Assembly (NCBI GenBank): GCA_965263075.1
Contig: CBDHGI010000006.1
Location: 402,929-466,928 of the forward strand
Direction: 5' to 3'
From: Chloroflexota bacterium
Lineage (GTDB): Bacteria > Chloroflexota > UBA11872
Length of the DNA stretch: 64,000 bases
The translations under genes were made by a program, and so were the position numbers. The notes under the pieces were generated by a model. The model saw only the letters and a list, made by a program, of their open reading frames with translations, did not search any database and had not been told where the DNA came from. This document shows, piece by piece, positions 21,433-44,060 of the stretch (positions are counted from its first letter, which is position 1; the number at the start of each line of letters is the position of its first letter).

Positions 21433-21506
21433 GCCCCCGTAGCTCAGAGGATCAGAGCGACGGCCTTCTAAGCCGTGGGTCGCAGGTTCGAGTCCTGCCG
21501 GGGGCG
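21433..21506 (+). tRNA. tRNA-Arg (anticodon TCT)
   Basis: Cloverleaf folded by hand: acceptor GCCCCCG/CGGGGGC, D-arm GCTC..GAGC, anticodon stem ACGGC/GCCGT with loop CTTCTAA (U33, anticodon TCT), T-arm GCAGG TTCGAGT CCTGC, discriminator G. CCA is not encoded. Confidence 0.85.
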
Positions 21507-26209: not shown

Positions 26210-27217
26210 ATGAGCCTAACCCTACAGGCCGCGACCGCGGACTTTCTGGCGGCCATGCGCGCCAAATCGCCGAGCACTCGCGCGACGTACGGTACGGGGC
26301 TGCGGCGTTTCGTGGCTTGGCGCGGGCCCGAGACGACACTGGCCGAGCTGGACGACGGACTCCTGGAGCGCTTTTACCTGGACTTGGTCGACGAGTTCGG
26401 ACGTGAGCGTCAGGCCACGATTTCGACCTACCTGGCGGCGGTTCGGGCCTTTCTGCGGCACTGCCTGCGTTCCGGCTCGCTGGGTGGGCTGGAGCTAGAG
26501 CGGGCCGTGGAGCGCCTGCGCGCCGTACGCGACAAGCCGGGCTACCGCACGCCGCGCGTCGAGAACGGCTTGGCGCTGATAGTTGATTATGTCAAGAACG
26601 AGTTGCCGAGTCTTGTCGCGGATTCGGCTTCGGCGGATGTCCGCCTGCGCGTGTACAGGGATCGGGCCTTGTTGCTGCTGCTGTTCACAACCGGCATGCG
26701 ACGGCGCGAGGTGGCACGGCTCGATCGGCGAGACGTTGACGACGGTCGAGCCCGACAGGCGCTGATTACCGGCAAAGGCGACCGGGAGCGGGTGGTGTTC
26801 TTTGACGACGACGCGCGCGAGGCAATTCGCGGTTACCTGGACGCGCGGCACGACGCGTACGCGCCGCTGTTCATCCGCCACCACGGCAAGCCGAAGAACC
26901 CGGGGCGGGCGGGCGAGCGCTTGCGTCTGTCGCCGCAGTCGATATGGAAGATCGTAAAGACATACGGGGCGGCCGTGGGCGTGCCGGCGACGACGCATGA
27001 CTTTCGGCATCTGAAGGCCACGTCCCTATTGAATCGCGGGGCGAACCTGTCGGAGGTTCAGGACATCCTGGGACACGCCTCGCCGGATACGACCAAGCGC
27101 ATCTACGCGCATTACGAGACCGCCAGATTGCGCGAGGCGTTTGACCGCTACAGCCCGACAGTGGAAGAGGCCGCGGCGGCGGCGCGGCAGACGCGGACGC
27201 CGGCGGGGTCACGGTAG
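26210..27217 (+). CDS. Tyrosine-type site-specific recombinase/integrase (XerC/XerD-phage integrase family)
   Basis: C-terminal catalytic blocks HDFRHLKAT ... LGHASPDTTKRIYAHY (R-H-R-Y signature) and an N-terminal SAM-like core-binding domain. The likely start is the ATG at 26210 (MSLTLQAATADFLAAMR). The ORF track extends to 26048. Confidence 0.85.
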   Translation: MSLTLQAATADFLAAMRAKSPSTRATYGTGLRRFVAWRGPETTLAELDDGLLERFYLDLVDEFGRERQATISTYLAAVRAFLRHCLRSGSLGGLELERAVERLRAVRDKPGYRTPRVENGLALIVDYVKNELPSLVADSASADVRLRVYRDRALLLLLFTTGMRRREVARLDRRDVDDGRARQALITGKGDRERVVFFDDDAREAIRGYLDARHDAYAPLFIRHHGKPKNPGRAGERLRLSPQSIWKIVKTYGAAVGVPATTHDFRHLKATSLLNRGANLSEVQDILGHASPDTTKRIYAHYETARLREAFDRYSPTVEEAAAAARQTRTPAGSR

Positions 27218-28892: not shown

Positions 28893-30298
28893 TGGGAAGC
28901 CGCCGGTTCGACGCGGTAGGAATCGAAGCGGCCGGCCAGGGCGGCCGGCACGGCGCCGCGCAGGCGGGTTCCGAACTGCCCAAACGACTCGGTTTCCACG
29001 CTGCCGTGTTCGTGAAAGAGCGCGACCAGGCGGCTGGCGTCGTAGGGAATCTCAACCTCGATGTCGATCGTGCGGATTCGATGAATCTCGGCCAGCCGCT
29101 GCAGCAGATCCTGGAGACCTTCGCCCGTGGCGGCCGAGACGGCCACAGCGTTGGGGTACTCGGCCAGGTCCGGCGCGGACGCAATATCCACCTTGTTTAG
29201 CGCCGTGACGACCGGCCGCCGCGCGGCTCCGATGTCGCGCAGGGTGTCGTGCACGACCTGTACCTGACGCTCGAAAGCGGGATTCGCCAGGTCGACGACG
29301 TGAATCATCACGTCGGCTTCCAAAGCCTCTTCCAGCGTTCCGCGGAAGGCCTGGACCAGGCGGGTGGGCAGGCGCTGGATGAAGCCGACCGTGTCGGTAA
29401 TCAGTATCGCGCCACCTTCTGGCAGGGCGACGCTGCGTGTCGTGGGGTCCAGCGTGGCGAAAAGGCGATCTTCCGTGTGGACGTCGGCGCCGCTGAGGGC
29501 GTTGAGCAGACTGCTCTTGCCGGCGTTCGTGTAGCCGACCAGGGCCGCGGTCATGAATCCCGCCTCGCGCCTCCGGGCGCGGCCCCTGGCCCGGCGCGCT
29601 CGCACCGAGGCCAACCGCTGGTCCAGCATTGCCATCCGTCCCCGGTAGAGGCGACGGTCGGTTTCGATCTGGGTTTCGCCCGGACCTCGGAAGGGTCCGA
29701 TGCCGCCGCGCTGTCGCGAGTATTGGGCCCATAGCTCTGACAGTCGGGGCAACAGGTACTCCAGCTGGGCACGCTCGACCTGCAGGTGACCTTCCACCGT
29801 GCGGGCACGGGCGGCAAAGATGTCGAGGATCACGCCGGTACGGTCAAGGACCTTGCCCTTGAACGTATTCTCCAAGTTGCGCTGCTGGCGGGGCTTCAGG
29901 TCGGCGTCGATCATCAGGACGTCGGCGTCGTGAGCGCGGGCAAGGGCGATCACTTCGTCCAGCTGACCCGTGCCCATCAGCGTTGCGGCCTGCGGTCGGC
30001 GAATGCGCAGAAGGGTGCGGCCCACGACCTCGGCGCCCGCGGTCTCGACCAGTTGCACCAGTTCGTCAAGGGAAGTGTCCGCGGGCCAATCGCCAAGTTC
30101 GGGCAGACCGTCCAGGCCGACCAGAAACGCGCGTTCGGGACGCGCGTCCAACAGCCGTCCGCTGACATTCGTTTCCGACGGCCCGGTTTGCGGGCGGCCG
30201 TTAGAAGCGGACGGTGGCAATGCGCTCCAGCGCTTCGTCAAGCCGGTCGTCGGGGGTGGTGAGCGAGATGCGGAAGTGGCCCTCGCCCGCCGGGCCAA
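28889..30298 (-). CDS. hflX: GTPase HflX
   Basis: HflX N-domain (ERAFLVGL...) and G-domain GYTNAGKSSLLNAL, DTVGF, NKVD. The ORF-track start (30298) would overlap the upstream aminotransferase gene by 98 nt. The real start is probably an internal TTG/CTG near 30160. Confidence 0.8.
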   Translation of the reverse strand: MARRARATSASRSPPPTTGLTKRWSALPPSASNGRPQTGPSETNVSGRLLDARPERAFLVGLDGLPELGDWPADTSLDELVQLVETAGAEVVGRTLLRIRRPQAATLMGTGQLDEVIALARAHDADVLMIDADLKPRQQRNLENTFKGKVLDRTGVILDIFAARARTVEGHLQVERAQLEYLLPRLSELWAQYSRQRGGIGPFRGPGETQIETDRRLYRGRMAMLDQRLASVRARRARGRARRREAGFMTAALVGYTNAGKSSLLNALSGADVHTEDRLFATLDPTTRSVALPEGGAILITDTVGFIQRLPTRLVQAFRGTLEEALEADVMIHVVDLANPAFERQVQVVHDTLRDIGAARRPVVTALNKVDIASAPDLAEYPNAVAVSAATGEGLQDLLQRLAEIHRIRTIDIEVEIPYDASRLVALFHEHGSVETESFGQFGTRLRGAVPAALAGRFDSYRVEPAASQ

Positions 30299-31379
30299 AG
30301 CCCACGCCCGGCGTCACGATGACTCCAACCTCGTCGATCAGGCGTGTCGCAAACTCAACCGAGGACATACCGCCGGGAGTCGGGCTCCAGACGTAGAGGC
30401 TGGCCTTGGAGATCTCTGCCGCGACCCCGACGTTCCGCAAGGCGCTCACGACGCGGTCGCGACGGTCCTGCAGGTGGGCGTTGCGAGCGTCGATCCAGTC
30501 CTGATCGATGTCGAGGGCCGTGATCGCGGCGTGCTGTACGGCCTGGAAGATGCCCGAGTCGACGTTGGTTTTCACCCGTCCCAAGGCTTCGACCACCTCG
30601 GGGTTGCCGGCCATCCAGCCAACGCGCCAGCCGGTCATGTTGTAGGTCTTGGACAGCGAGTGGAACTCAACGGCGACGTCTCGGGCTTCTGGGATCTCGA
30701 GGATGCTGCGGCAGCGGTAGCCGTCGAACGCAACCTCCGAGTAGGCCGCGTCCTGCGCCAGGACCAGGTTGTTGGCACGGGCGAACTCGACCGCCTCCTC
30801 GAAGAACTCGAACGGAGCGACGGCCGCCGTGGGGTTGCCGGGATAGCAAAGCCAAAGCAGACGGGCATTGGCCAGCGCGTCGGCAGGAACGGCGTCGAGG
30901 TCGGGAACCCAGCCGCGTTCCGCCGTGAGGGGCAGGGAGTGGGACACTCCGCCGGCCAGCATGGCGCCGATGGCGTACACCGGATAGCCCGGGTCGGTCA
31001 TCAGCACGGTGTCGCCGGGATTGACGAGCGCCAGCGGCAGGTGGGCAATGCCCTCCTTGGATCCGATGAGCGGGACGATCTCGGTGGCGGGATCGAGGCT
31101 GACCTCGAACCGGCGCGCGTACCAGGCGGCGATGGCCTCGCGCAGTTCGTCCAAGCCGTAGTACTCGGGATAGCGGTGATTGACCGGATCGCGCGCGGCC
31201 CGTTCCAGAGCCTCGATGATTGGTTCGGGCGTGGGGAGGTCCGGGTCGCCGATGCCGAGGCTGATGACGTCCACGCCCTTGGCCCGCTTGGCGTCGCGCA
31301 GCTTGTCGAGCTCCGCGAAGAGGTAGGGCGGGAGGTTGGAAATGCGGTCGGCGAATTTGATCGTGGACTGGCTTGTCAC
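30201..31379 (-). CDS. dapL: Class I/II pyridoxal-phosphate aminotransferase, LL-diaminopimelate aminotransferase (DapL)-like
   Basis: KFADRISNLPPYLFAELDK N-terminal block and the PLP lysine region SLSKTYNMTGWRVG. Likely GTG start at 31377-31379, 1 nt from the dapF stop. The ORF track extends to 31445. Confidence 0.6.
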   Translation of the reverse strand: MTSQSTIKFADRISNLPPYLFAELDKLRDAKRAKGVDVISLGIGDPDLPTPEPIIEALERAARDPVNHRYPEYYGLDELREAIAAWYARRFEVSLDPATEIVPLIGSKEGIAHLPLALVNPGDTVLMTDPGYPVYAIGAMLAGGVSHSLPLTAERGWVPDLDAVPADALANARLLWLCYPGNPTAAVAPFEFFEEAVEFARANNLVLAQDAAYSEVAFDGYRCRSILEIPEARDVAVEFHSLSKTYNMTGWRVGWMAGNPEVVEALGRVKTNVDSGIFQAVQHAAITALDIDQDWIDARNAHLQDRRDRVVSALRNVGVAAEISKASLYVWSPTPGGMSSVEFATRLIDEVGVIVTPGVGFGPAGEGHFRISLTTPDDRLDEALERIATVRF

Positions 31380-31380
31380 T

Positions 31381-32241
31381 TCAGCGGACCTCCGCCGTGT
31401 TGTTGCTCGGCCATGCGCCTTCGAAAACCGTGGCCGCTGGTCCACGCAGAATCAGTTCGTGGCCCGGACCGTCCCAAACGACCCGCAGCCTGCCGCCCGG
31501 CATGTCGAGCTCAATCGCGCCAGGATCGATTCGGCCCTCAAGCACGGCCGCAGCCACGCAGGCGGACGCGCCGGTTCCGCAGGCCAGGGTGATGCCGGCG
31601 CCGCGTTCCCAGACGCGCGCTCTGAGATGGTTGGGGCCAACGACTTGCACGATCTCAAAGTTCACGCGTTCAGGAAAGGTTGGGTCGTGCTCGACGAGAG
31701 GTCCGATGTGCTCGAGCGGGAAGTCGTCCACAGATTCCTGGAACGTTACGGCGTGCGGGTTGCCCATGGAGACACCGGTAACCGTGAGCGTCAGACCGTC
31801 GGGTTGCAGGGTGGCGCGGCTGCCGGGACCGTCGGTCCGCATGGGGATGTTGGCGGGCTCGAAGTCGGGTACGCCCATGCCAACGGCGGCCTCGAACAAG
31901 CCGTTGACGTAGCCGCCGATCTCGAGGCGACGCGGTCCGCCGGCCGTTTCCACGATGACCGGGCCACTGGACAGCTCGCCCTGGTCGAAGAGCCACTTGG
32001 CAAAGCAGCGAATGCCGTTGCCGCACATCTCGGCGAGGGAGCCATCGGAATTCCAGATTTCCATGTGGTACGGGTGGGACGCGCCGGGACGGACGACCAG
32101 CAACTGGTCGAATCCGACGCCCATGTGCCGGTCGCCGATGGCACAAGCGATTTCGTCCAACTCCGCCGGCACGCCGTCGCGTCCGTCGAGGAGCACGAAG
32201 TCGTTGCCCGCGCCGTGCATTTTGGTGAAGGAGAGGCTCAT
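31381..32241 (-). CDS. dapF: Diaminopimelate epimerase
   Basis: FTKMHGAGNDFVLLD and the catalytic Cys blocks (MCGNGIRC ... ACGTGASA). The ATG at 32241 (MSLSFTK) gives 287 aa. The ORF track has a non-homologous N-terminal extension. Confidence 0.85.
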   Translation of the reverse strand: MSLSFTKMHGAGNDFVLLDGRDGVPAELDEIACAIGDRHMGVGFDQLLVVRPGASHPYHMEIWNSDGSLAEMCGNGIRCFAKWLFDQGELSSGPVIVETAGGPRRLEIGGYVNGLFEAAVGMGVPDFEPANIPMRTDGPGSRATLQPDGLTLTVTGVSMGNPHAVTFQESVDDFPLEHIGPLVEHDPTFPERVNFEIVQVVGPNHLRARVWERGAGITLACGTGASACVAAAVLEGRIDPGAIELDMPGGRLRVVWDGPGHELILRGPAATVFEGAWPSNNTAEVR

Positions 32242-32392
32242 GAACCGCCGTGACTTCCGCGAGTGCCGGTGCCGCTCGAAGCGAGAACCGGGATGCTCCA
32301 GCATGCGGGACTCAGCTTTTGCATGGCCAGCCTACTTGGTGACCGGACGACTGCGCGGGCAAGGGCCATAAATCCGGCGTCCTTGCGCGTAT

Positions 32393-32416
32393 AAGAGTTT
32401 TTTCCAAAAAACTCTT
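32393..32416. promoter_or_regulatory. Perfect AT-rich palindrome AAGAGTTTTTT-cc-AAAAAACTCTT in the divergent intergenic region between dapF and the VanZ-like genes. Candidate operator or binding site.
   Basis: Read directly from the sequence. Preceded by TATAAG. It is the only strongly AT-rich element in a ~470-bp GC-rich intergenic region. Confidence 0.45.
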
Positions 32417-32713
32417 GAGGTAATTCGGGGCGCTTTGGGCCGATGAATCGCGACGCTGGGCGAGGGTTGATGGGTCCTGGCACGGCACGGCGTCGCCGGG
32501 CGAGGGTTTCGGCGACGCCCTTCGACAGGCTCAGGGCGAACGGGGGGTGGGCGGGAGGCATCCGGAATTGAGGTTGCGGGGACATCGAGGTTATTGTACA
32601 CTAGTAGTGGACACAACGCAATCACCGTGTCCGCGGGCAGTCGGCGAGGGCTGCCGGAAGGGCAGGGCCCGTCATGTCGCGGCTGCTGACGGCAGCCGGC
32701 GTGGAGTGACGCC

Positions 32714-33286
32714 ATGAGGTTGTTCGCATCCCGGCGGGAGCGGCGGTTGTGGTTGTGGACGCTGGCAGTGGTCGTGGCGATCTACTCGACGCTGGGGCTG
32801 ACGGGCACGCTTGCCGAGTGGCTGCGGGAGCACGGTTTTTTGGACGCCGCCGTGTTCTTTCTGCTTGGCATGTTCCTGGTGGGCGCCACGATCATCACGC
32901 AAGGGGTCAGGGTACGGATCGGCAAAGCCGAGATCGCCGTGGCGATGGGAGTTGTGGCCGCGTATCTGATGGTGTTCACAAGAATGGCGATCCTGGAAGA
33001 GCGCTCGCACCTGATCGAATACGGAGTGCTAGGCGTGTTCATCCACGAGGCGCTGGCCGAGCGGGTGAGGCAGGGTCGGCGAGTGCCTCTGCCGCCGCTG
33101 CTGGCCGTCCTGGCGACAGCAACTCTGGGGGTAATCGACGAGGGCATTCAGTGGTTTCTGCCCACCCGTGTGTTCGATCCGCAGGACATCCTGTTCAACC
33201 TGCTGGCGGGCACGATGGCGATTGGCGCCGTCATGGTCCTGGCATGGGCGCGGCGGCGAACGAGTCGCGCCAGACGCGGCACGTAG
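32714..33286 (+). CDS. VanZ-like family membrane protein (paralog 1)
   Basis: 190 aa, 4 TM. VanZ-type block VIDEGIQWFLPTRVFDPQDILFNLLAG. Confidence 0.65.
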   Translation: MRLFASRRERRLWLWTLAVVVAIYSTLGLTGTLAEWLREHGFLDAAVFFLLGMFLVGATIITQGVRVRIGKAEIAVAMGVVAAYLMVFTRMAILEERSHLIEYGVLGVFIHEALAERVRQGRRVPLPPLLAVLATATLGVIDEGIQWFLPTRVFDPQDILFNLLAGTMAIGAVMVLAWARRRTSRARRGT

Positions 33287-33289
33287 ACC

Positions 33290-33907
33290 ATGAACTGGTT
33301 TTCCTCGCCTCGGGAACGGCGCCTGTGGCTGTGGAGTGCTGCTGTCGTGGCGGCGATCTACTCCACGCTCGGACTGGCGGGGACGCTAGCCGAGACCCTC
33401 CGCGAATACGAGCTGCTGGACGCCTCGGCCCTGGTCCTGTTTGCCATGTTCCTGCTGGGGGCAACGATCTTCACGCTGGGCATCAGGATGCGGCCCCGCG
33501 GGGCGGAGATCGCAGTGCTCCTCGGCCTCACATTCGTTTACCTGCTGCTGTTCCTGCGCACTACGGTGAGTCCGGCGGAGCGCACGCACCTGATGGAGTA
33601 CGGCGTGCTGGGCGTGTTCATTCACGAAGCGCTGGTCGAGCGGGCAAGCCAGGGGCGGCGCGTTCCCGTTCCCGCGGTGGTGGCTGTGGTCTCGGCCGCG
33701 GCAATTGGTGTGGTGGACGAGGGGATCCAATGGTTCTTGCCGAATCGAGTGTTCGACCCAGTGGACATGCTGTTCAACTTTTTGGCGGCTACGACGTCGG
33801 TAGCGGCGGTTGTCGCGCTGGCGTGGGCTCGGAGGTGGACCTTGCGACGACTCCGACGCCCAGGGGCCAGCGGTGGTCGGCGGCGAGGTGGTGGAGGGCG
33901 GCGTTGA
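33290..33907 (+). CDS. VanZ-like family membrane protein (paralog 2; the C-terminal Arg/Gly tail is encoded antisense to a miaA remnant)
   Basis: 205 aa and collinear with paralog 1 (VVDEGIQWFLPNRVFDPVDMLFNFLAA). Separated from it by 3 nt. Confidence 0.65.
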   Translation: MNWFSSPRERRLWLWSAAVVAAIYSTLGLAGTLAETLREYELLDASALVLFAMFLLGATIFTLGIRMRPRGAEIAVLLGLTFVYLLLFLRTTVSPAERTHLMEYGVLGVFIHEALVERASQGRRVPVPAVVAVVSAAAIGVVDEGIQWFLPNRVFDPVDMLFNFLAATTSVAAVVALAWARRWTLRRLRRPGASGGRRRGGGGRR

Positions 33908-34210
33908 AGTCGATGGCGGCGGCGCGGTCGGGGGCGAGTGGCGGGGCGCCGAGCGGGGGGCTCGTCAGCAGGGACTGGATGTAGACGCCGGTGCCGCCGA
34001 CGCCGACCGGAACCTTTCGGCGGGGCTTGATAGCAGCGCGGGCGATGCCTGCCGACCGGGGCGTGCTGAAGACTTAGAGTGGGCCATTTATGTCAACCAG
34101 ATGGTGGGGTACGCGTCTTCGTTCGGCGACTGGTGGCGTGGCGGTGCCGATGTCGAGGCCGCGGTAGAGCTTGCGGGCGGTGGGATGACGCGGTGGGTGG
34201 AATTGCCAAG
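33880..34210 (-). pseudogene. miaA (tRNA dimethylallyltransferase) remnant, copy 1. Internally deleted, with the N-terminal third joined to the last ~20 codons.
   Basis: DNA-level similarity to the intact miaA. 33880-33960 matches 35200-35280, 33960-34030 matches 35770-35850, and 34040-34200 matches 35890-36010 (e.g. tatgtcaaccagatggtggggtacgcg vs tatgtcaactaggtgatggggtagacg). No intact frame. Confidence 0.6.
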
Positions 34211-34652
34211 GCGGCGTGGATGGGCTCGTCGGACTCCGCACCGGCAATCCGAGGAACCCGGCTCCGCGCAGACAAGGCCAGCGGCCACAAGTGACAGGGA
34301 ATGGCCGGGTTAACGTGGTGATGCAGTCAACGTGAGCTTTAGTTCACGCTGAGGTCTGGCGGAAAGGACCCTGTGAAGGGACGGACGCGGTCGGCGTGGC
34401 GCGCGACATCGACGGCACTCAGGTTCTAGCCGATCGCCGTTGCGGTATTTTTGGCGGCGGCACTGGGGGCGGCGGCCTGCGGACCGGGTGAACGAGATGA
34501 TGTCGAATCGCCTAATCGCGGAAAGCCTGACGGACGAGGAACTTCAGTGCTCTCAATCGAAGCTGTGGAAGTACGCGGAGGTCGTGCACTAGCGTCGAAG
34601 AGCCGCGTAAGGTCAGGCGAACAGACGGCGTTCGTTACCCACGGAGGAAGCG

Positions 34653-34895
34653 ATGCGAAAGTCGATTGGCGCGGCTACGGCTGCGTTGGTGGTGGCCGGG
34701 ACGGCCTTCATGGCGTGCGGGGGCACGTCGGAAGACGAGTGGGCACGCGAACAGGTTTACCGGCACTCGCATACCCATGCCGTGATCAATTGCGTTCAGA
34801 CAGAGATGCATCTGCGCGGTCGGCAGGGTCTTGAGGTGACCGACGAAGACCGCTGGACGATCGAGGTGGAGTGCAGAGGCAGGCTCAAACGATAA
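34653..34895 (+). CDS. Small secreted/lipoprotein-like hypothetical protein (80 aa), possibly the 5' part of a disrupted larger gene
   Basis: Strong Shine-Dalgarno GGAGGAAG 4 nt upstream of the ATG. Signal peptide MRKSIGAATAALVVAGTAFMACGG. Stops 4 nt before a cadherin-like ORF fragment in another frame. Confidence 0.4.
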   Translation: MRKSIGAATAALVVAGTAFMACGGTSEDEWAREQVYRHSHTHAVINCVQTEMHLRGRQGLEVTDEDRWTIEVECRGRLKR

Positions 34896-34899
34896 GCCA

Positions 34900-35193
34900 G
34901 TGAGCCGCGAGATCAACCGCGACTACGCACCCGTGGGATCCGCGGCACCCGACGCCACCGTGGCGGCGGGCGCGCTGGATCATGACTCCACGTCGACCTA
35001 TGCCCTGACGCTGACGGCGACCGACGCCCACCGCGGCACGGCCACCACCACAGTGAGCGTGGCGGTGACGGACGTGCCGCCCGCGCCGGAACTCGGGGCG
35101 GCCAGCTACGCCTTCACGGTGGCCGAGGACACGGCCGTCGCCACCCAGGTCGGGACGATCCGGGCCACGGTCGCCGTGACCAGCGGGGGCTGA
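34900..35193 (+). pseudogene. Fragment of a cadherin-repeat surface protein gene (no start codon; truncated)
   Basis: YALTLTATDAHRGTATTTVSVAVTDVPPAPE ... ASYAFTVAEDTAVATQVGTIRATV matches the cadherin repeat consensus (Y.L.V.A.D..G...T..V.I.V.DVND..P.F....Y...V.E....G..V..V.A.D). The frame opens without an initiator. Confidence 0.5.
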
Positions 35194-35199
35194 TTGGGG

Positions 35200-36138
35200 C
35201 TACCGGAGGTCGGCGGCGAGGTGGTGGAGGGCGGTCTTGAGTGCGGTGTCGGGTGGGTGCCAGTGGGTGGGGAGTTGGTGGCGGAACCAGGTGCGTTGGC
35301 GGCGGGCGTATTGGCGGGTGCGGATGGTGGTGCGTTCGATGGCCTCGGACAATGTGAGCTGGCCGTCGAGGTGGGCCAGCGTTTCGGCGTAGCCGACGCC
35401 GGTCAGGGCCGGGAGGGTGCGGTCGTAGCCCTGATCGCGGAGCCGGCGGGCTTCGTCGAGGAGGCCGTTCTGGAACATGTGCGCGGTGCGCTGGGCGATG
35501 CGGTCGGCCAGCGTTGCGGGTTCGACTTCCAAGCCGAGGACATAAGCCGGGATGGGACGAGTGGCCGAGGGCTGGCTTTCGGGCGCGGTCTCGTGGCGCC
35601 GGGACTCTGCGATTTCCAGGGCACGGATCAGGCGGCGGGGGTTGTTGAGGTCGATGGAGGCGGCACGGTCGGGGGCAATTTCGCGCAGGCGGTCGATCAG
35701 GAGTTCAGGTCCCTCGGCTTGGAGTTGGCACGTCAGGCGTTGGCGTAGCTCGGGATCGGGCGGTGTCGCGCCGAGCGGGGAGCCGGTGAGCAGGGCCTGG
35801 ATGTAGAAGCCGGTGCCGCCGACGAGGACCGGAATGGCTCGCCGTGACCTGATTGCATTGATTGCCGTGCGTGCGATGCGGGCAAAGCGGTGAGCGCTGA
35901 ATGATTGGTCAGGGTCGATTATGTCAACTAGGTGATGGGGTAGACGCCGCCGCTCGGCCCGCGTGGGTTTGGCCGTGCCCACGTCCAGGCCTCGGTAGAC
36001 CTGCCGGGAGTCGGCGGAGATGACTTCGATGGACGCGTGTTCGGTCAGCTCCAGGGTAAGGCTGGTTTTGCCGGTGGCGGTGGGTCCGGCGATGACGAGG
36101 AGCGGCGGACGTTGGACGTCCTGAGTTACGTGCAGCAA
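35200..36138 (-). CDS. miaA: tRNA dimethylallyltransferase (tRNA delta(2)-isopentenylpyrophosphate transferase)
   Basis: LLVIAGPTATGKTSLTLELTEHASIEVISADSRQVYRGLDVGTAKPT (P-loop and MiaA signature). 312 aa, intact. Confidence 0.9.
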   Translation of the reverse strand: MLHVTQDVQRPPLLVIAGPTATGKTSLTLELTEHASIEVISADSRQVYRGLDVGTAKPTRAERRRLPHHLVDIIDPDQSFSAHRFARIARTAINAIRSRRAIPVLVGGTGFYIQALLTGSPLGATPPDPELRQRLTCQLQAEGPELLIDRLREIAPDRAASIDLNNPRRLIRALEIAESRRHETAPESQPSATRPIPAYVLGLEVEPATLADRIAQRTAHMFQNGLLDEARRLRDQGYDRTLPALTGVGYAETLAHLDGQLTLSEAIERTTIRTRQYARRQRTWFRHQLPTHWHPPDTALKTALHHLAADLR

Positions 36139-36309
36139 GGCACCTCCACCTTGTATCGAGTCATGGGCAGGAGTCAGATTCCGGATGTTCCCACGGCTTT
36201 GAGCTATCCGACGAGGCCTCAGACGTCGGGTCGTGAGTGCTCGTTGGCGACGGGTGCTTCAAATGGACTGTAACGTCGGATTGGGCCCTTCGGCTGGAGC
36301 CATTGACGT

Positions 36310-39300
36310 CTAGCGTTGGCTCTGGCCGTTATTCCTGATCTGGGTGCCGAATTCCTCCCAACTCGCCTGTCCATCTCCATCAAAGTCCACAGTGAGAGAC
36401 GGGTACTGACTGGCCGAGCCAAAGTCCCAAACATCCGTCAGTTCAGCGGCCATTGGATACGCAAAGATCGGAATCCCAGGTCCGACTGAGTGGCGCCACG
36501 GCGCATATATCCCTGCGTAATCCGTGGGCTCCTGCAACTCCGAGCCGGTCTTGCCGACGATTTGCACATTTCCGTCCCACCACCGCCTGGGAAAATGGGC
36601 AGCATTGGTTGGTTCATTCCTGCCGAACCCAACTGACTGACCCGTTGCCTGCGTGTCCCATAAACTGTTTATCACAGCGCTCAGATTCACTCCAACCAGG
36701 CCTCCCACCAGGTCGTCTCCTACGACATAGGCCGTGGTATAGCTGTCGATGATCACAGCGGGCCTCTGGCTCCCCCCGTTCCAACCCACGAGTCCGCCAA
36801 CATGCCGCTGGCCGGAGACGCTACCCATGGAATAGCTGACAAGGACGTCGTACCCATTGTTTCCGACCAGTCCACCCACGGTTTCGCCACCAGACACTTC
36901 GGTGTTCGCGTAGCTTGAATCTATCGTGTCGAAGTTGTATCCAACCAGTCCGCCAACTGACTCCCTACCCGTCACCTGTCCGGTCGCGTAGCTGGCGCGC
37001 ACCTTGCCTCCATTCCCGCCGACTAGGCCGCCAACAACCTCGTCTCCAGCGACGATTCCGGAAGCGTATGTTGCATGGAGCGTTCCATACAGCAGTCCGA
37101 TGAGGCCTCCCACATAGTCTGTGCCTTTGACATCCACCTCTGCGTAACTTGATTCTATTTGCCATCCCTGAATAGCATTCTCCGAGTCCTGGTTGTACCC
37201 CACAAGTCCGCCAACGTGGGTAGTTCCTGATACCAGGCCGGTGGCATAGCTATGACTGATGATGCCCCGATTCTCTCCGACCAAAGAGCCTACCGACGCC
37301 AGGCCAGTGACGAGCACATCATTGAGGCCAATACCGCGAATGACCGCGGAAGAACCTGTGAACCCGAAGAGTCCGGCTGCCCCGGCATCTTCCAGAAACG
37401 TCGTTCTGTTGACGAAGAGACTCCGAATGGTATGTCCATTGCCTTCAAACGTGGCAGAAAACGAAGTCTCGCTTGATCCAACCCCTATGGGTAACCAACC
37501 ACTGCCCCTTGTCCACAGAGGGTTTACCACGCCGTACGAATAGCTTTCGAGATCTTGAAAATCAAGCGGCCGGGTCAATTCGTAACCATTGCACCCGCTG
37601 CAAGGATTGGTTTCCGCAGCGGGAAAAGCCGACGCGTAAGCCTTGTCCCCGGCGCCATCGGGGATCCCATTGCCATCTAAATCGAAGCGGACGGCATTCA
37701 GCTGCTCTAGATTCGAGACTTCGATCAGTCCGTCCGAGTCAGTATCGAGACTCTGGCTAGCTGGCACGGTCGCTACCGGGGTCGTGACGGGCGCAGGTGT
37801 ATCCGGGGGCGCGGCGGACGGGGCCGTTGACGACGGTTCCCGCCCTTGCTCACCGAATTCCTGCCAGGTTGCAACGCCGTCGCCATCGAATTCGGCTTTG
37901 AGCACCGGGTACTGTTGGCTGGTACCAAAGTCCCAAAAGTCACCGGCTCCCGTTTCCAAGGTATAGTCACCATCAGCATTGTCCAGATCGATGTTCCAGG
38001 CACTGAAGACTCCAGTGAATCCGGCGGGCGATTGAAGCTCGGCCGTGGTCTTGCCAGAATTCGTCGGGACATTGCCATCGCCAGTGCCGTTGGACTGACC
38101 GGATACGTCGATGTCCCAAAAACTGAGGATTAGCCGCCCAGGATTTCGTCCGGTGAGTCCGCCGACGGAAGTCTCGCCGCTCACGAACGCGGCGGCGTAG
38201 CTCGCAATTACCGTTCCCGGGCCGCCTTCGTCCCATCGGTCAACCCACGGCATCGAATTGTCACCGACGAGACCTCCAACGACCACTGATCCCGACACGC
38301 TTCCGGTGGCAAAGCTGGCGATGATAGACCCTGAATTGGCTCCGGCGATACCTCCAGCAGCTTCGTGTCCCGACACATCCCCGGTGGCGTAACTGGCCGT
38401 GACGTTGCTCGGATCGTTACCCGCGGCGTTGACTCCGACGAGACCGCCTACCCTGGAGCGTCCAGCCACGGGCCCCTTTGCATACGTGAAGGCGACATGA
38501 CCTTCTTCGTTACGGCCGACCAGGCCACCAACCTCAGAGCCGCCGGTCACGTTCGCGGTGGCAAAGCTGGCGGTAACTGACGCCTTCTGGCCACGCCAAC
38601 CCTCGGTGTTCCATCCGACCAGTCCTCCTATCCGTGACTCGCCGGACGTTTCGGTTGCGGAGTGGCTAAACCTGATGAGGCGACGGTTGGTCCCAACCAA
38701 TCCACCCACATTGTTCTTGCCGCTTACCCTGCCGGTGGTGTATGAATTGAAAACGTCACCCTCGTTCGTAGCGGCCAAACCACCCACATTGTTCCCGCCA
38801 GTGATGTCTACGTTTATGACGCCAATATTTCGAATCACGCTGTCCTCTTGCACATGCGCGAAGAGTCCCGATGCCTCATTGGTACGATCGTCGAGATCCG
38901 TGACCTTGACGTAGAGGTTACTAATGACATGCTCGTTGCCATCGAATGTGGCTGGAGAGCGAAAATAGCCAAGGTCTTCAGGCTGCCAGCCTATGCCGCT
39001 CCGCCAATCCGCGTTCACGACTCCGGTCGCGTAGCTACTCGGATCTGCAAAGTCCAGCGAGCGCGTGAGCTCATATCCAAAGCAAAAGTCGCAGACCTCT
39101 TCATTGTCCTTGATGGGAAACGCTGCGTAAAACGGCTTTCGCACCGCAGGATAGTCGGGGCGTCCGTTGCCGGCCCTATCCATACCCATTGCAGCTAACT
39201 GCTCCAAATTGGAGACTTCAATCAGCCCATCGGCATCCTTGTCGTAGTTACCGTTGTCGCGTTGGATCCCAGCGATTCGACCCTGAGGGCCAAACTCCTC

Positions 39301-40908
39301 CCACGTAGCAGTCCCATCTCGGTTGGCGTCGACTTTCAGTGCCGGATACTGATTTAGTCGACCAAAGTCCCAGACATCGTCAACGCCGGTGTCGCGATTG
39401 TCATCCGCGTCTGCGTTGTCGACGTCCAGCTGCCAGTTCTCGAATGGGCCGCTGTAGTCGGTGGTACCCTGAAGCACAGAGGTTGGAACGCTGCGACTGC
39501 TGGACGGATTACCCTCACCAACATCGTTCAATTGACCCGAGACGTGAGTATCCCAGACGCTATCCAGGACAACCACTGTCTCCCAATCACTATACGGTAC
39601 GTTTCTTCCTATCAGAGCACCGACAATGCCGTTGCTTTCGACGTGACCGACACCGAAGGTGGCTCGCACGGTACCAGCCTCGTTTGATCCGATAATACCG
39701 CCGACAATCGTACCGCCCGAGACGTTGCCAAGGGCGTACGCTGCGATTATGTCACCAATGTTCATCCCGACCAGACCGCCGGCAGAGTCAATCCTATCCC
39801 GCACCGATCCCGCGGCGTAGCTTACCGTTACGACGCCGCTGTTGGAACCGATCAGGCCACCGATGTCCTCTGCTCCGACGATCCGTCCGGTCGCGTAGCT
39901 CTTAGAAATGTTCCCATCATTCGCACCAACCAAGCCGCCAGCCTGCCAGATTCCCAGCACATTTCCGCTAGCGTAGCTCTCGACAATGTCCCCGTGATTG
40001 CCCCCTATCAGTCCCCCACAGCGACTATCGGCGCAGGCTACACTGCCTGTAGCGTAGCTGCTTGCGACGCTACCCCGGCTGAAGCCGACCAGAGCTCCAA
40101 TTTCGTACTCTCCGGAAGCGCCGCCGTTCGCATGACTGCCCAGGATCGAACCATAGTTGGTTCCGACAAGACTGCCAATCTGGGACCAGCCGAGTACCCG
40201 TGCCGACGACCGACTATCTTGAATGACACCGTGGTTCTCTCCGACGAGACCTCCAATCTGGTCGATTCCGTCGACATTTCCGGAGGCGTGGCTGCGCTCA
40301 ATCATCCCCCGGCTGTAGCCGGCCAGGGCTCCGACCAATCTGAAGCCTGTGACGTCCGCCTTCAGGTCATCTACTCGCGCGACAACTGCCGTGCTATCCA
40401 AATAGCCAAAGAGTCCTACTGGTCGCGGATCAACGCTCTCTTCAAGCCGAAGAATGTAGAGGTTGGAGACGACGTGCTCGTTGCCCTCGAACGTTGCCGC
40501 AAAGGGACTGACTTCCGTGCCGATAGGCGTCCATCCCTCACCGGTTCTCCACGCTCTGTTCGTCGCGCTTGACGCGTAGCTATCCGGGTCGGAGAAATCC
40601 AAATCTCTGGCCAGTTCATATCCCTGGCACGTGGGTGTGCATGCAACCCGTAACGAGGTCTGCGAAAAGGCCCTGTAAAAAGCTTCCTCGGCACGAGACC
40701 CGTCGGGCTTTCCGTCGCCATTGAGATCATTTCGAATGGCGTCGAACTGTTCGAGATTATTGATCTCAATGAGACCGTCGTCATCCAGATCGTGATCGCC
40801 GCTGACCGCTCGGACAGTGGTGGCAGCGCTGCAAGCCAGAACAGCGAAGAGCATGACGAGCCATAGCAAGTTTGACACCAGCGGAGTGCTGGCCCGGCTC
40901 GGAATCAT
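36310..40908 (-). CDS. Giant secreted repeat protein (about 1532 aa mature-length ORF). It has a signal peptide and three tandem ~470-aa units, each with a DxDxDGLIE(V/I)xNLEQ calcium-loop-like motif, a GYELTR/ATFEGNxH block, 8-10 GLUG-like (GGLVGxNxGxI..SYATGxVSG) beta-helix repeats and a DFWDFG..QYP.LK.DFDGDG..W.EFG terminal block. Function unknown; candidate adhesin or surface-layer component.
   Basis: ORF track 36310..41139. The first 77 codons are Arg-rich without homology, and the ATG at 40906-40908 gives the classic signal peptide MIPSRASTPLVSNLLWLVMLFAVLACSA. The internal triplication is visible in the protein (DHDLDDDGLIEINNLEQ / DKDADGLIEVSNLEQ / DTDSDGLIEVSNLEQ). Confidence 0.85.
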   Translation of the reverse strand: MIPSRASTPLVSNLLWLVMLFAVLACSAATTVRAVSGDHDLDDDGLIEINNLEQFDAIRNDLNGDGKPDGSRAEEAFYRAFSQTSLRVACTPTCQGYELARDLDFSDPDSYASSATNRAWRTGEGWTPIGTEVSPFAATFEGNEHVVSNLYILRLEESVDPRPVGLFGYLDSTAVVARVDDLKADVTGFRLVGALAGYSRGMIERSHASGNVDGIDQIGGLVGENHGVIQDSRSSARVLGWSQIGSLVGTNYGSILGSHANGGASGEYEIGALVGFSRGSVASSYATGSVACADSRCGGLIGGNHGDIVESYASGNVLGIWQAGGLVGANDGNISKSYATGRIVGAEDIGGLIGSNSGVVTVSYAAGSVRDRIDSAGGLVGMNIGDIIAAYALGNVSGGTIVGGIIGSNEAGTVRATFGVGHVESNGIVGALIGRNVPYSDWETVVVLDSVWDTHVSGQLNDVGEGNPSSSRSVPTSVLQGTTDYSGPFENWQLDVDNADADDNRDTGVDDVWDFGRLNQYPALKVDANRDGTATWEEFGPQGRIAGIQRDNGNYDKDADGLIEVSNLEQLAAMGMDRAGNGRPDYPAVRKPFYAAFPIKDNEEVCDFCFGYELTRSLDFADPSSYATGVVNADWRSGIGWQPEDLGYFRSPATFDGNEHVISNLYVKVTDLDDRTNEASGLFAHVQEDSVIRNIGVINVDITGGNNVGGLAATNEGDVFNSYTTGRVSGKNNVGGLVGTNRRLIRFSHSATETSGESRIGGLVGWNTEGWRGQKASVTASFATANVTGGSEVGGLVGRNEEGHVAFTYAKGPVAGRSRVGGLVGVNAAGNDPSNVTASYATGDVSGHEAAGGIAGANSGSIIASFATGSVSGSVVVGGLVGDNSMPWVDRWDEGGPGTVIASYAAAFVSGETSVGGLTGRNPGRLILSFWDIDVSGQSNGTGDGNVPTNSGKTTAELQSPAGFTGVFSAWNIDLDNADGDYTLETGAGDFWDFGTSQQYPVLKAEFDGDGVATWQEFGEQGREPSSTAPSAAPPDTPAPVTTPVATVPASQSLDTDSDGLIEVSNLEQLNAVRFDLDGNGIPDGAGDKAYASAFPAAETNPCSGCNGYELTRPLDFQDLESYSYGVVNPLWTRGSGWLPIGVGSSETSFSATFEGNGHTIRSLFVNRTTFLEDAGAAGLFGFTGSSAVIRGIGLNDVLVTGLASVGSLVGENRGIISHSYATGLVSGTTHVGGLVGYNQDSENAIQGWQIESSYAEVDVKGTDYVGGLIGLLYGTLHATYASGIVAGDEVVGGLVGGNGGKVRASYATGQVTGRESVGGLVGYNFDTIDSSYANTEVSGGETVGGLVGNNGYDVLVSYSMGSVSGQRHVGGLVGWNGGSQRPAVIIDSYTTAYVVGDDLVGGLVGVNLSAVINSLWDTQATGQSVGFGRNEPTNAAHFPRRWWDGNVQIVGKTGSELQEPTDYAGIYAPWRHSVGPGIPIFAYPMAAELTDVWDFGSASQYPSLTVDFDGDGQASWEEFGTQIRNNGQSQR

Positions 40909-41610
40909 GGCCGCCCAACTGTCAGGGTTCAAATTGGGGTATCCCGGGTGACCACGCAAGGGCCGATTCCCTGGTCCAAGAACTGTGGCGGCGTCCCGCC
41001 AGGCGCGTGGGCCCGCCGTGGCCAGTTGTGACTTTCGAGCCGTGGCGCCGGCAGCTCGCCGGCCGGGGAAATTCGTCCAGGCAGCCGCACGCGTAGAGGT
41101 ACGCATGGGGTGGCTCTGCCGGTTGCCACGGCTCGACACGCCTGAAATCTGCGTCGAGGCTCAACACGCCAGCGGCCTCGCTTCGCCCGGGCTAGCATGA
41201 GCCCAATGTGCCAAGTGTGCGTGGCTTGATGCAGCACCTGCGTCACGTTTCCCTCTGGCGCGCCAGAGACTACGAAGAGACGTACATGGTATTCGGCGAG
41301 AACGTAGAGTTTTGCATACAGCCATTCCGATATGGAGTGCTGGGCGACACAGCTAGCTGCTCGTGCCCGGGCAACTGTTGGTCCCAGTAGACGGCGGCGG
41401 CGCGCGCCAGGCTTTGTTTGAACGATTAGATATCTACTCGGCGGTCCGTCTCTCGGTATCGAGCGCGCCCGGAGTCGTATTGGTCGGGAAGGCTGTCTGG
41501 CAAGAATTGCCACTACTGTTCTCGCCATCCAAGCTGTGTCCCCTCTCACCGCGACGGCACGCGCAGGCTTGGAGACCAACGGCGATTACGGCCGAGGGTC
41601 GAATGGGGCA

Positions 41611-42396
41611 TCAGCGAGAGGCGGCTAAGCCCAAGATCTCGAGTTGCCCTTGCGAAGCCGACTCTCGGCTGCGGCGAGGCTTGGGCACGGACCCGACCGA
41701 CCTCGGCTGCCCCGTCCAACCGTGGATCAAGTGAGATTTCGGTTTACCTGTAGGTATCACGACCGTGGGGATGCGCTTCCAACGGGTGTGCAGGCTTGAT
41801 CGCCAACTGTCCCCCTTCGCCGCGGAGGGTAATGCGAACCATGCGCTCGGTGCGTTGGGCGATGCGCTTGGCCAATGTCGCGGGTTCGACCTGCAGGCCG
41901 AGGATGTAGGCCGGGATGGACCGGTTGGTTGCGGGCTGGTGGCGTTGGGATTCGGCGATTTCGAGGGCGCGGATGAGGCGGCTGCGTGTTCGGGGTCGGG
42001 CGGCGTGGCGCCGAGCGGGGAGGCTGTGAGCAGCGCCTTGATGTAGAAGCCGGTGCCGCCGACGACAAGCGGGATGGCCCGCCGCGCCCGGATCTCGTCG
42101 ATCGCGGCGTGCGCTATGCGTACAAAGCGGTGTGCGTTGAAGACCTGGTCGGGGTTGATTATGTCAATGAGGTGGTGTGGCGCACGTCGCCGCTCGGCCG
42201 GCGTGGGCTTGGCCGTGCCGATGTCCAGTCCGCGATAGACCTGCCGGGAGTCGGCGGAGATGACTTCGATCGGCAGATGCTCCGCGAGCTCGAGCGCCAG
42301 GCTGGTCCTGCCGCTGGCGGTGGGTCCGCCGATAACGAGCAGTGGCCGCTCAGGCATTGCCGCGGGCTCCTCGCGATACCATGGGCGACGCCCCAA
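41611..42396 (-). pseudogene. miaA remnant, copy 3. The N-terminal ~125 codons are intact, then a ~100-nt internal deletion/frameshift, and the C-terminus is missing.
   Basis: MPERPLLVIGGPTASGRTSLALELAEHLPIEVISADSRQVYRGLDIGTAKPT ... GATPPDPE, then the frame changes. DNA 41760-42010 aligns to 35480-35830 of the intact miaA with a deletion. The antisense peptide GGVAPSGE is shared. Confidence 0.65.
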
Positions 42397-42421
42397 CCTT
42401 CACGCAGGGTCCCTTGCGCGC

Positions 42422-43426
42422 ATGACCCAGGCCGAACCCGACGACGCGCCCGTCGCGACATCCGCGGGTCCGTACAGCAACCTGCAGGCGGTGTTGGAGG
42501 CCGGTGAGTTTGCGGTTACCTGCGAGCTGGGTCCGCCGCGGGCGCCGGACGCGGCCGACGTGCTGAAGAAGGTCGGGATCATCCGTGGATACGTGGATGC
42601 GGCCAGTTGCACCGATAACCAAGGCGCGGCGCTGAAGATGGCCAACTGGGGCGCGGCGCTGCTGTGCCTCCAGGGCGGGGTGGAGCCGATCATGCAGCTT
42701 TCCTGCCGCGACCGGAACCGGCTGGCCATCCAATCCGACGTGATTGCGGCGCAAGCGTTCGGCGTGCGTAATTTTATGTCAATCAGCGGCGATTCCCTGG
42801 TGCTTGGCGATCATCCCATGGCCAAGCCGGTATTCGATCTACAGGGTGTGCAACTTGTGCGTCTGCTGCGCCGGCTGCGTGACGAAGGCCGAACGGCCGC
42901 CGGCGATCCGATAGCAGGCGAGTTTGGCTATTTGATTGGCGGCGCGGCCAATCCCTTCGCGCCGCCCTACGGCTGGCGTCCGCTGCGTCTGCTGAAGAAG
43001 GCCGAGGCGGGCCAGGAGTTCGCCCTGACGCAGATGATCTTCAACGTGGACCGCTTTGCCGACTGGATGTCATACGTGCGCGACGAAGGTCTGGATAAAC
43101 GTGTGCACATCTTCGCGGGCGTGGGACCGCTGAAGTCCGCCCGCATGGCCGAATTCATGAAGTTCAAGATCGCGGGCATGGAAGTGCCGGACGCCGTGGT
43201 GGAACGGATGCGGGCGGCCAAGAAGCCGCGCACCGAGGGCGTGAAGATTTGCCTGGAGATTATCGAGCAGGTGCGTGAGATTCCGGGCGTGCACGGGATT
43301 CACATCATGGCCATCGACTGGGAACGGGCCGTCCCGCGCATCGTGAAAGCGGCCGGCTTGAAGCTGCCCAGGCCCGTTCCCGAACCGTCGCTGGCGCCTG
43401 GGCTGCCCGCGGCGGCTATTGCCTGA
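42422..43426 (+). CDS. metF: 5,10-methylenetetrahydrofolate reductase (MetF family)
   Basis: FAVTCELGPP ... SCTDNQGA ... MQLSCRDRNRLA ... FNVDRF blocks. The likely ATG at 42422 (MTQAEPDD) gives 334 aa. The ORF track starts at 42260. Confidence 0.8.
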   Translation: MTQAEPDDAPVATSAGPYSNLQAVLEAGEFAVTCELGPPRAPDAADVLKKVGIIRGYVDAASCTDNQGAALKMANWGAALLCLQGGVEPIMQLSCRDRNRLAIQSDVIAAQAFGVRNFMSISGDSLVLGDHPMAKPVFDLQGVQLVRLLRRLRDEGRTAAGDPIAGEFGYLIGGAANPFAPPYGWRPLRLLKKAEAGQEFALTQMIFNVDRFADWMSYVRDEGLDKRVHIFAGVGPLKSARMAEFMKFKIAGMEVPDAVVERMRAAKKPRTEGVKICLEIIEQVREIPGVHGIHIMAIDWERAVPRIVKAAGLKLPRPVPEPSLAPGLPAAAIA

Positions 43427-44060
43427 CGTGGAGGCGTCCACCGGCGACTCGCTGGCCGAGTTTCTGGACGCCCTGGGCTCCTCACAACCCACGCCGGGCG
43501 GCGGAGCGGGCGCGGCGGTGGCGCTGGGGATGGGAGCGGCGCTGGTTGGCATGACGGCGCGGCTGACGACAGGACGCCGCCGGTTTCGGGCGGTGCAGGC
43601 GGACATGGAACGGGTGATCGAGCGCTGCGACACGATTCGGGCGTCGGCGCTGGAACTGGCCGCGGCGGACGCCGCGGCCTATGGGGACGTGATGGCGGCG
43701 TACGCGCTGTCGCGTGGAACCGAGGCCGAGCGGCGCGCGCGTCGCACGACGATTGCCCGCGCCGCCGAGCACGCAAGCCGGGTTCCACTACAGGTTGCAG
43801 GCACCGCCGCCAAGGTGATCGAGCTAGCCGCGGAGACCGCCACGAAGGGCAACCCCAGCGTGATCAGCGACGCCGGGGCCGGGGCAGCGCTGGCGCGCAC
43901 GGCGATCCGAATCAGCGAGATGAATGTGCAGGCGAATCTGGGGTCGATCGACGACGCAGCGATTCGCGCCGAACTGGCGGCGGAACTGGACGAAGCCCGA
44001 GCGGCGCGCGACGCGGCGGACAACGTGGTTGATGCCGTGCTGAGTCAGAGTTCGGCATGA
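43419..44060 (+). CDS. fchA: Methenyltetrahydrofolate cyclohydrolase / formiminotransferase-cyclodeaminase C-domain family protein (FchA-like)
   Basis: LGSSQPTPGGGAGAAVALGMGAALVGM signature of the FTCD_C/cyclodeaminase family. 213 aa. Confidence 0.7.
   Translation: MPDVEASTGDSLAEFLDALGSSQPTPGGGAGAAVALGMGAALVGMTARLTTGRRRFRAVQADMERVIERCDTIRASALELAAADAAAYGDVMAAYALSRGTEAERRARRTTIARAAEHASRVPLQVAGTAAKVIELAAETATKGNPSVISDAGAGAALARTAIRISEMNVQANLGSIDDAAIRAELAAELDEARAARDAADNVVDAVLSQSSA

Follow-up and report, generated by a model that had tools for sequence, protein, structure and literature searches.

Why should one stretch of bacterial DNA carry three copies of a housekeeping gene, only one of them whole, around the gene of a giant secreted protein? 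The question is raised by a 64,000-nucleotide (nt) stretch from a Chloroflexota bacterium (the window, to which coordinates refer), in which the three main segments homologous to the tRNA-modification gene miaA all lie on the minus strand within 8.5 kb. We propose that the two decayed copies, called remA and remC here, are probably scars of repeated recombination between lineages within one Chloroflexota group, a reading that we hold with some reserve. The process is already known, and the locus is a new, well-documented instance of it rather than a new kind of genetic element. The window was compared with 16 informative related Chloroflexota loci from metagenome assemblies, collected by a genome scan and by protein searches. 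Look-ups by exact sequence with the window's MiaA and with the protein P0012 gave no match, so that the genome of the window itself is apparently absent from the collection searched. Related loci are denoted by L-numbers, and C2 and C3 denote 5' miaA remnant types of these relatives.

One intact and two decayed copies of miaA

The copies and the giant gene between them are as follows.

35200–36138, minus strand: intact miaA (tRNA dimethylallyltransferase), 312 amino acids (aa), from Pfam and NCBIfam matches
41790 (approximate)–42357, minus strand: remC, a 5' miaA pseudogene, from blastn against the intact copy and alignment
33863–34189, minus strand: remA, a putatively older miaA pseudogene, from blastn against the intact copy and alignment
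36310–40908, minus strand: giant gene for a secreted GLUG-repeat protein of 1532 aa with three internal modules (Pfam Glug, 2e-38)

A first-pass annotation had described three miaA copies in one orientation, one intact and two decayed, and both blastn and alignment agree with it. The product of the intact gene matches the Pfam family IPPT (PF01715, E=3e-80) over profile positions 1–243 of 243 and is a full-length equivalog match to TIGR00174, scoring 265 bits against a cutoff of 148.65; the gene is presumably functional. With intact miaA as the query, blastn searches of the window gave matches with E-values from 5e-92 to 1e-10. A 30-mer that had been quoted as recurring among the copies occurs three times in the window at no more than two mismatches, where the chance expectation is 0.

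remC is 79.8% identical to the intact copy over 372 nt (41976–42346, E=5e-92) and 72% identical over 188 nt (41815–41982, E=1.5e-22). Its codons 1 to ~130 are intact and are followed by a frameshifting 106-nt deletion near 41976–41984 and then by an 18-nt deletion; homology stops at codon ~233–238 and the C-terminus is absent. remA is 69.8% identical over 275 nt (33928–34189, E=5e-29). Here the first ~40 codons are lost and codons ~44–130 are kept, followed by a 46-nt piece (33890–33935, 83%) that corresponds to codons ~157–168 and by the last 15 codons (33863–33907, 89%). It contains one in-frame stop and several internal deletions, the ratio of nonsynonymous to synonymous substitution rates (dN/dS) is 0.67–0.93, and it appears to be the oldest copy. 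Neither remnant has a frame that is unbroken across the whole domain, as expected of a functional MiaA, and pairwise alignment bears out the view that both are truly homologous to miaA and decaying. A deletion shared by remA and remC, as would result from copying of an existing pseudogene, was considered and rejected: in the alignment the deletions overlap but have different end points, and remA keeps codons ~157–168, which are absent from remC.

The layout given earlier proved accurate, but two boundaries need adjusting. The miaA homology of remC is shorter than the mechanically predicted open reading frame (ORF) at 41611–42396, and likely begins with the ATG at 42357; for the giant gene, 40908, which is also the start called in relatives, is more likely than 41139. 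The gap between the giant gene and intact miaA, earlier put at about 170 bp, is 171 nt.

Cargo varies on both sides of miaA

In the related loci, a conserved backbone of MTHFR, miaA, VanZ, dapF, an aminotransferase gene, hflX, a ceramidase-like gene and an Xer-like recombinase gene surrounds two slots, one on either side of miaA, and both slots change cargo among the 16 loci. The upstream slot, between MTHFR and miaA, holds PIN toxin–antitoxin pairs, a nucleotidyltransferase/HEPN pair, a methyltransferase or a 164-aa ORF; the giant GLUG gene is found there in many genomes. The downstream slot, between miaA and VanZ, is either empty, with miaA and VanZ overlapping tail to tail, or holds the 80-aa ORF described below followed by surface-protein genes of cadherin, PD40/LRR and fn3 types. 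Structurally, the locus is thus a hot spot centred on surface genes, in line with the structural turnover proposed in the first-pass annotation.

Orthologues of the giant gene (77–95% protein identity) lie directly upstream of intact miaA in L081, L082, L085, L086, L087, L088 and L089–L094. In L088 this pair is present with no remnant, and L001, L002, L083 and L084 have neither the giant gene nor a remnant. Since the pairing of giant gene and miaA is clade-wide and occurs in L088 without a remnant, the giant gene was not inserted between the copies of an old duplication. The GC content of the gene (57–59%, against 64–70% in the flanks in the GC profile and ~65% for the region) had suggested a recent foreign insertion between miaA copies, an explanation ruled out by the same conserved pair. 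The earlier idea that surface-protein cassettes recombine with miaA as homology arm is thus close to the best explanation, except that the giant gene was not inserted between the copies.

With regard to the giant gene itself, GC lies 6–10 points under that of the flanks; between strains, the gene is 80–100% identical, depending on the part compared. The three protein modules are alike and ~480 aa each, with an N-terminal, Asp-rich motif that resembles calcium-binding ones (DxDxDGLIE), GLUG repeats and a C-terminal DFDGDG motif. In tblastn searches, the giant protein had no match beyond its own gene, including the intervals 33900–35200 and 41140–41800.

Remnants upstream of the giant gene

Between the giant gene and remC, the following segments were delineated.

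40909–41386, minus strand: leader/promoter region of the giant gene, non-coding and conserved, from identity to relatives
41387–41404, minus strand: 18-nt scrap CGCGCCGCCGCCGTCTAC, corresponding to miaA codons ~161–166
41405–41789, minus strand: filler of ~390 nt, >96% identical in L086 and L095

The leader is 97–99% identical to those of L081 and L082, 83% to that of L087 and 76% to that of L088. No Rfam match was found in the leader or, at a permissive E-value, in the interval 32000–44000. We also observed that, against L081 and L082, the non-coding leader (40909–41404) is more alike than most of the coding region (88–97%), and that mechanical ORFs overlap 40929–41579.

Every 5' remnant found sits just before this leader, in four genome types, and its form varies. 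The C2 type (L081, L082 and L085) consists of miaA codons 10–166. The C3 type (L087) consists of codons 1–108 with an in-frame stop and is not called as a gene. A third type, found in the window, L086 and L095, consists of codons 1 to ~238 plus the filler of 390 nt. C2 joins the leader at window position 41404–41387 and the C3 joint is 23 nt further in. The remC-type structure was recovered in L086 at 96% identity; the L095 copy shares the truncation and the filler, but not the deletions of 106 and 18 nt. These states form a decay series, with L095 at an earlier stage and the window and L086 at a later one, and several stages of pseudogene decay are visible among co-occurring strains. A point of use for annotation is that ORFs of 188–261 aa labelled 'IPPT' in these genomes are remnants and not paralogous enzymes.

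remC is collinear with the MTHFR flank exactly as is the single miaA of L002. On its other side, searches with the filler region (41380–41830) in the window and in all close loci found no homologue. The 18-nt scrap beyond the filler runs straight on from miaA codons 10–160 in L081 and L085, whereas unrelated DNA precedes it in the window, and it is probably all that is left of an older 5' remnant of the L081/L082/L085 type. Since the window would thus retain the last 18 nt of a C2-type junction, we suggest that remC came later and, in a second event, took the place of most of this older remnant.

The downstream remnant and its insertion

remA is part of a haplotype-specific insertion whose features, with the VanZ gene beside it, are listed here.

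33920–35195, no strand: insertion of ~1.3 kb between miaA and VanZ2, absent from close relatives
34900–35193, plus strand: cadherin-repeat fragment, within the insertion
34504–34974: module with an 80-aa lipoprotein-like ORF (34653–34895, plus strand), within the insertion
34190–34503: 315 nt with no homologue found in the window or close loci, within the insertion
33290–33907, plus strand: VanZ2, whose last ~15 codons are antisense to the miaA 3' end kept in remA

From the side of intact miaA, the order is cadherin-repeat fragment, 80-aa ORF module, 315 nt and 5'-truncated remA. The description of the first two as a cadherin fragment and a lipoprotein-like ORF also held. The 80-aa ORF is conserved in L084, L087 and L002, and its module is 83–85% identical to the DNA just downstream of miaA in these three loci. 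The Cadherin match of the 97-aa ORF is weak (E=8e-5, below cutoff), and at the DNA level it matches repeats within the 1360-aa cadherin gene of L084 at 68–79%. The interval 34180–34520 had no homologue in the window or in any close locus.

The insertion is absent where miaA abuts VanZ (L081, L082, L083, L085, L086 and L088), and remA with its companion insertion of 1.3 kb was found only in the window's haplotype. This haplotype is represented by six independent contigs (L089–L094) from three samples, collinear over 28.6–40.9 kb at 96–98% identity. A 57-nt direct repeat of the miaA 3' end and VanZ tail bounds the insertion (35196–35252, minus strand, against 33863–33919, 82% identity), and both copies of it match the single miaA/VanZ overlap of L081 (95% and 90%). 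The VanZ2 tail is antisense to the remA 3' end, as described before; its sequence ASGGRRRGGGGRR matches the VanZ tail of L081 and L085, which there overlaps intact miaA, and the remA 3' end is thus the original miaA/VanZ overlap. It was probably retained because part of VanZ2 is encoded there.

A related arrangement was seen in other loci, in which a 99-nt direct repeat, made up of the final 45 nt of miaA and 55 nt that follow it, flanks the 80-aa module (L087, 15691–15789 and 16373–16471, 97% identical; L002, 6440–6540; L084, 11582–11606). Flanked in this way, the module of L087 and L002 resembles an insertion that left a very short scar of the miaA 3' end.

Allelic origin of the miaA copies

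A recent tandem duplication would be expected to leave paralogues that are mutually closest and a unit that carries the same flanking cargo. Instead, the remnants are as close or closer to intact alleles of other genomes, and the cargo types differ. Over the N-terminal 354 nt, the intact copy and remC are 80.2% identical, and either is 79–83% identical to the orthologues of L001 and L002. In neighbour-joining trees the remnants form no single clade: C2 groups with the intact copy of L086 and with L001, C3 with the intact copies of the window and L081, remC forms its own branch, and remA lies near the L085, L002 and L088 alleles and not near the window's own copies. The window and L081/L082 have an almost invariant leader, yet the remnants next to it are no more than 77.7% identical. 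At the protein level, the remC of L086 is 97% identical to the N-terminal part of full-length, 305-aa MiaA from other genomes (P0060, P0042 and P0037). From these comparisons, the copies are very likely of different allelic origin and not recent duplicates.

Substitution rates give a similar picture, in that the copies have diverged to the extent seen for orthologues of separate species. Against every other copy, remC has a synonymous rate (dS) of 0.6–0.7 and a dN/dS of 0.18–0.19, compared with a dN/dS of 0.22–0.30 for pairs of functional orthologues; C2 has a dN/dS of 0.28 against the nearest intact allele, and the remC copies of the window and L086 give 0.5 against each other. Duplication followed by decay in place, as first proposed, does not agree with a remC dN/dS like that of functional orthologues or with the L086 remnant being so close to full-length MiaA N-termini, and it could not give rise to remnant alleles that lie near functional ones inside near-identical flanks. 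A low dN/dS in a truncated copy can stem from recombinational overwriting and need not reflect retained function. Since remC holds the MTHFR-adjacent place that the functional gene has in genomes like L002, functional alleles can overwrite its 5' part.

Could the copies nevertheless derive from an old tandem duplication within the genome, whose spares decayed in place while cargo was later inserted between them? We consider this unlikely. Such an event would fit the single orientation of all copies within 8.5 kb and the stepwise deletions from L095 to the window and L086. It would also fit the joints of three remnant types with the giant leader, which lie no more than 23 nt apart, as a single founding junction would lead one to expect. 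However, the copies are no closer mutually than to the orthologues of other genomes, remnants differ by 22% where flanks differ by 1–3%, and neither the low dN/dS of remC and C2 (0.18–0.28) nor the 97% identity of the L086 remnant to functional alleles elsewhere is accounted for. The cargo is no repeated module, L088 has the giant gene and miaA without a remnant, and remA and its insertion are missing from close relatives. An ancestral tandem array of surface gene plus miaA modules, which the first-pass annotation had also entertained, is not supported: the cargo between the copies is unrelated and the copies are not mutually closest.

Recombination and polymorphism across the locus

When the window, L081 and L082 were aligned, blocks of 100% and ~82% identity alternated within miaA and along the flanks; intact miaA is itself such a mosaic of 100% and 82% blocks against L081/L082, with an overall protein identity of 93% between the window's MiaA and that of L081 (P0001). 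Compared with L086, the window is 96% identical from MTHFR through the giant gene and 80% across miaA and VanZ. From these mosaics, recombination is pervasive at the locus.

Variation among seven haplotypes from three samples is unevenly distributed. The 2.2 kb from 33920 to 36138 has 0–3 segregating sites, with only three in intact miaA and 0–1 in the insertion of 1.3 kb, against 6.5–13% in VanZ, dapF and the giant gene. The low variation could be due to a recent spread (a local sweep); alternatively, the insertion could block crossing by imports from lineages that lack it.

On a finer scale, a 100-nt patch of remC (42076–42175) is 67% identical between the window and L086, two haplotypes that are 92–100% identical elsewhere, and in this patch the L086 remnant has a 27-nt identical run with its own intact miaA. 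The patch suggests short-patch ectopic gene conversion.

A proposed recombination model for the remnants

For the mechanism of the joints, the order of events and the route of DNA entry, we infer the following. Incoming DNA from a diverged lineage would carry a complete miaA and adjacent cargo. Of its two connections with the chromosome, one would be a homologous crossover in conserved genes of the flank and the other an illegitimate joint within resident miaA. The DNA could be either linear, as in homology-facilitated illegitimate recombination, or a circularised fragment that integrates by a single crossover. One working miaA would stay beside the cargo, and the resident copy would be left truncated on the far side of the cargo. 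Cargo upstream of miaA (the giant GLUG gene with its leader) would thus leave a 5' fragment beside MTHFR, namely remC, C2 or C3, and cargo downstream (the cadherin fragment and the 80-aa module) would leave beside VanZ a copy that lacks the 5' end and bears the 3' end, namely remA. Later, the scars would shed pieces through deletions between short GC-rich repeats, and their homologous parts would be overwritten repeatedly, either by the intact copy or by alleles that come from other strains. That exactly one intact copy always remains would be explained by selection for a working miaA, and the survival of the last codons of remA by their overlap with VanZ2 coding sequence.

The polarity of the scars is as this model predicts, in that upstream scars keep the 5' end and downstream ones (remA and the 99-nt repeat in L087/L002) keep the 3' end. 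At each novel joint one side is collinear with the recipient flank (remC with MTHFR, the remA 3' end with VanZ) and the other side is non-homologous filler (41405–41789 and 34190–34503). The joints fall in GC-rich short repeats (CGCGCCG, GCCGCC).

Both homology-facilitated illegitimate recombination and circular single-crossover integration have been documented experimentally, in Acinetobacter, Streptococcus pneumoniae, Pseudomonas stutzeri and E. coli conjugation (PMC3240628). The present locus resembles these cases in its one homologous anchor and one illegitimate joint, in the gain of foreign cargo with displacement or duplication of part of the resident sequence, and in the predicted polarity. 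It differs in that the process is deduced from natural genomes of uncultured Chloroflexota and in that the anchor gene is itself on the incoming DNA, so that truncated paralogues accumulate. For the orphan genes arrayed at type VI secretion system (T6SS) and Rhs loci, this mechanism has also been proposed (PMC5361080 and work cited there). As in those arrays of Rhs, contact-dependent inhibition (CDI) and T6SS effector–immunity genes, successive displacement leaves truncated pieces in one orientation beside variable surface or competition genes. Unlike them, where the pieces are variable toxin tips and immunity genes that may be functional, the pieces here belong to a housekeeping tRNA-modification gene that is unrelated to the cargo, and they lie on both sides of the gene. 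The locus would thus be a natural record of a housekeeping gene serving as an anchor for the swapping of strain-specific surface genes in an uncultured Chloroflexota population.

Several points weigh against recombination scars as the explanation. No donor with the order miaA, cadherin fragment, 80-aa ORF and 315 nt, or with the 390-nt filler, was matched in the window or close loci. The leader-side joints of C2 and C3, only 23 nt apart, suit one founding event followed by deletions, or a preferred site, better than independent joints. Likewise, no more than ~6 nt of miaA separate the point at which the remA 3' piece is joined from the point at which the 99-nt repeat of L087/L002 begins, and this could hint at a specific site. 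The closeness of the joints could reflect a single founding event with deletions, selection for the giant promoter and for VanZ coding sequence, or a preferred site. The dS estimates (~0.65 for remC) rest on ~120 codons. Sequence alone cannot separate linear one-ended recombination from a circular single crossover in these uncultured bacteria.

An extension of the scar model, which we regard as improbable, is that the miaA fragments are not inert scars but standing homology arms of a cassette-exchange locus. In that case, with a 5' miaA piece retained ahead of the giant, adhesin-like gene and a 3' piece past the downstream module, the miaA region of any strain could recombine in or out, so that surface-protein genes are added, swapped or deleted while a working miaA is always regenerated, and swapped blocks could sweep through co-occurring strains. 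Its signatures would be the near-invariant block at 33920–36138 within polymorphic flanks and remnant 5' parts that resemble functional alleles.

Site-specific integration, retained function and assembly

Genomic islands are found at the 3' end of tRNA and tmRNA genes with repeated target ends, for example the tandem ssrA-linked islands in Dehalococcoides. By analogy, miaA could be the attachment site of integrase-driven islands, each of which restores the gene with a partial copy so that fragments pile up. Here too, direct repeats of the 3' end bracket small strain-specific modules (57 nt, 82%, in the window; 99 nt, 97%, in L087, and also in L002), two 3' junctions fall within ~6 nt, and a tyrosine recombinase gene lies ~8 kb away (26048–27217). 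Unlike such islands, the inserted segments contain no integrase (no recombinase domain was detected in 33920–35195 or 36139–41800), no constant core was found, repeat lengths vary, and 5' fragments are also left, for which the explanation has no place. Remnant extents vary at both gene ends (3', 22–99 nt; 5', 108, 166 and ~238 codons). The recombinase is Xer-like, below every family cutoff, and in the same place in all loci whatever the cargo. A tRNA scan found only a tRNA-Arg at 21433 and no tRNA gene nearby, so that a tRNA-type attachment site is lacking, and in the literature searched no paper described islands that integrate at miaA. We regard integrase-driven islands as unlikely.

As regards the recombinase gene, it scores below all NCBIfam cutoffs and in every related locus has the same place, after the ceramidase-like gene; the window ceases to be syntenic with L081, L082 and L085 just past it, near 25673.

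An integron was also considered. The small toxin–antitoxin modules between MTHFR and miaA of relatives recall chromosomal integron arrays in their strain-variable cargo, but integrase models score far below cutoffs, no integron integrase is adjacent, the cassettes of relatives are of mixed orientation, and no attC-like repeat was found in the window. A 25-nt motif near the cassettes of relatives was likewise rejected as a boundary of attC type or of repetitive extragenic palindrome (REP) type: it is absent from the window and found mainly within the 99-nt repeat, with weaker matches near cassettes in L081, L082 and L085.

The 5' remnants might instead be kept for use, either as an N-terminal (P-loop) MiaA fragment or as a miaA promoter that possibly drives the giant gene. 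remC and C2 are free of stops over 130–160 codons with a dN/dS of 0.18–0.28, and in four genome types a 5' remnant immediately precedes the giant leader. On the other hand, C3 has an in-frame stop, truncation points and frameshifted tails differ, the remC copies of the window and L086 have a dN/dS of 0.5, and L088 has a giant-gene locus without any remnant. Overwriting with functional alleles accounts for the low dN/dS. Retained function is very unlikely. False duplication during assembly, a concern raised earlier and one that applies to metagenome-derived sequence such as this, is excluded by independent contigs and can be set aside almost completely: the copies are only 70–80% identical, too divergent for such an error, the remC structure was recovered from other samples in L086 and L095, and three samples yielded six contigs with the remA haplotype, at 96–98% identity.

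Flanking genes and other variable segments

The genes on either side of the locus are listed below.

28889–30298, minus strand: hflX
30201–31445, minus strand: aminotransferase gene
31381–32304, minus strand: dapF
32714–33286 and 33290–33907, plus strand: two VanZ genes
42422 (likely start)–43426, plus strand: MTHFR, followed by an FTCD_C gene, also on the plus strand

In relatives, a variable array of PIN toxin–antitoxin, nucleotidyltransferase/HEPN and methyltransferase genes lies between MTHFR and miaA (L081, 467–3102; L082, 2498–3198; L083, 5550–8775; L084, 7533–9947; L085, 212–2979; L087, 5969–9175). The window lacks this array, and the starts of MTHFR and remC are only 64 nt apart.

Many staggered DNA matches of 65–70% link window positions ~51900–53400 with 2.5 kb of L001 that lie upstream of miaA, and with several sites in other loci. 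They suggest that the loci have a repeat-rich gene family in common.

VanZ is present as tandem paralogues in varying number, with two in the window (32714–33907), three in L082 (10947–12981) and three in L088 (15705–17442). In L083 (10947–13910), a fragment of an LRR gene lies between two VanZ genes. The VanZ array is thus another unstable spot beside the miaA locus.

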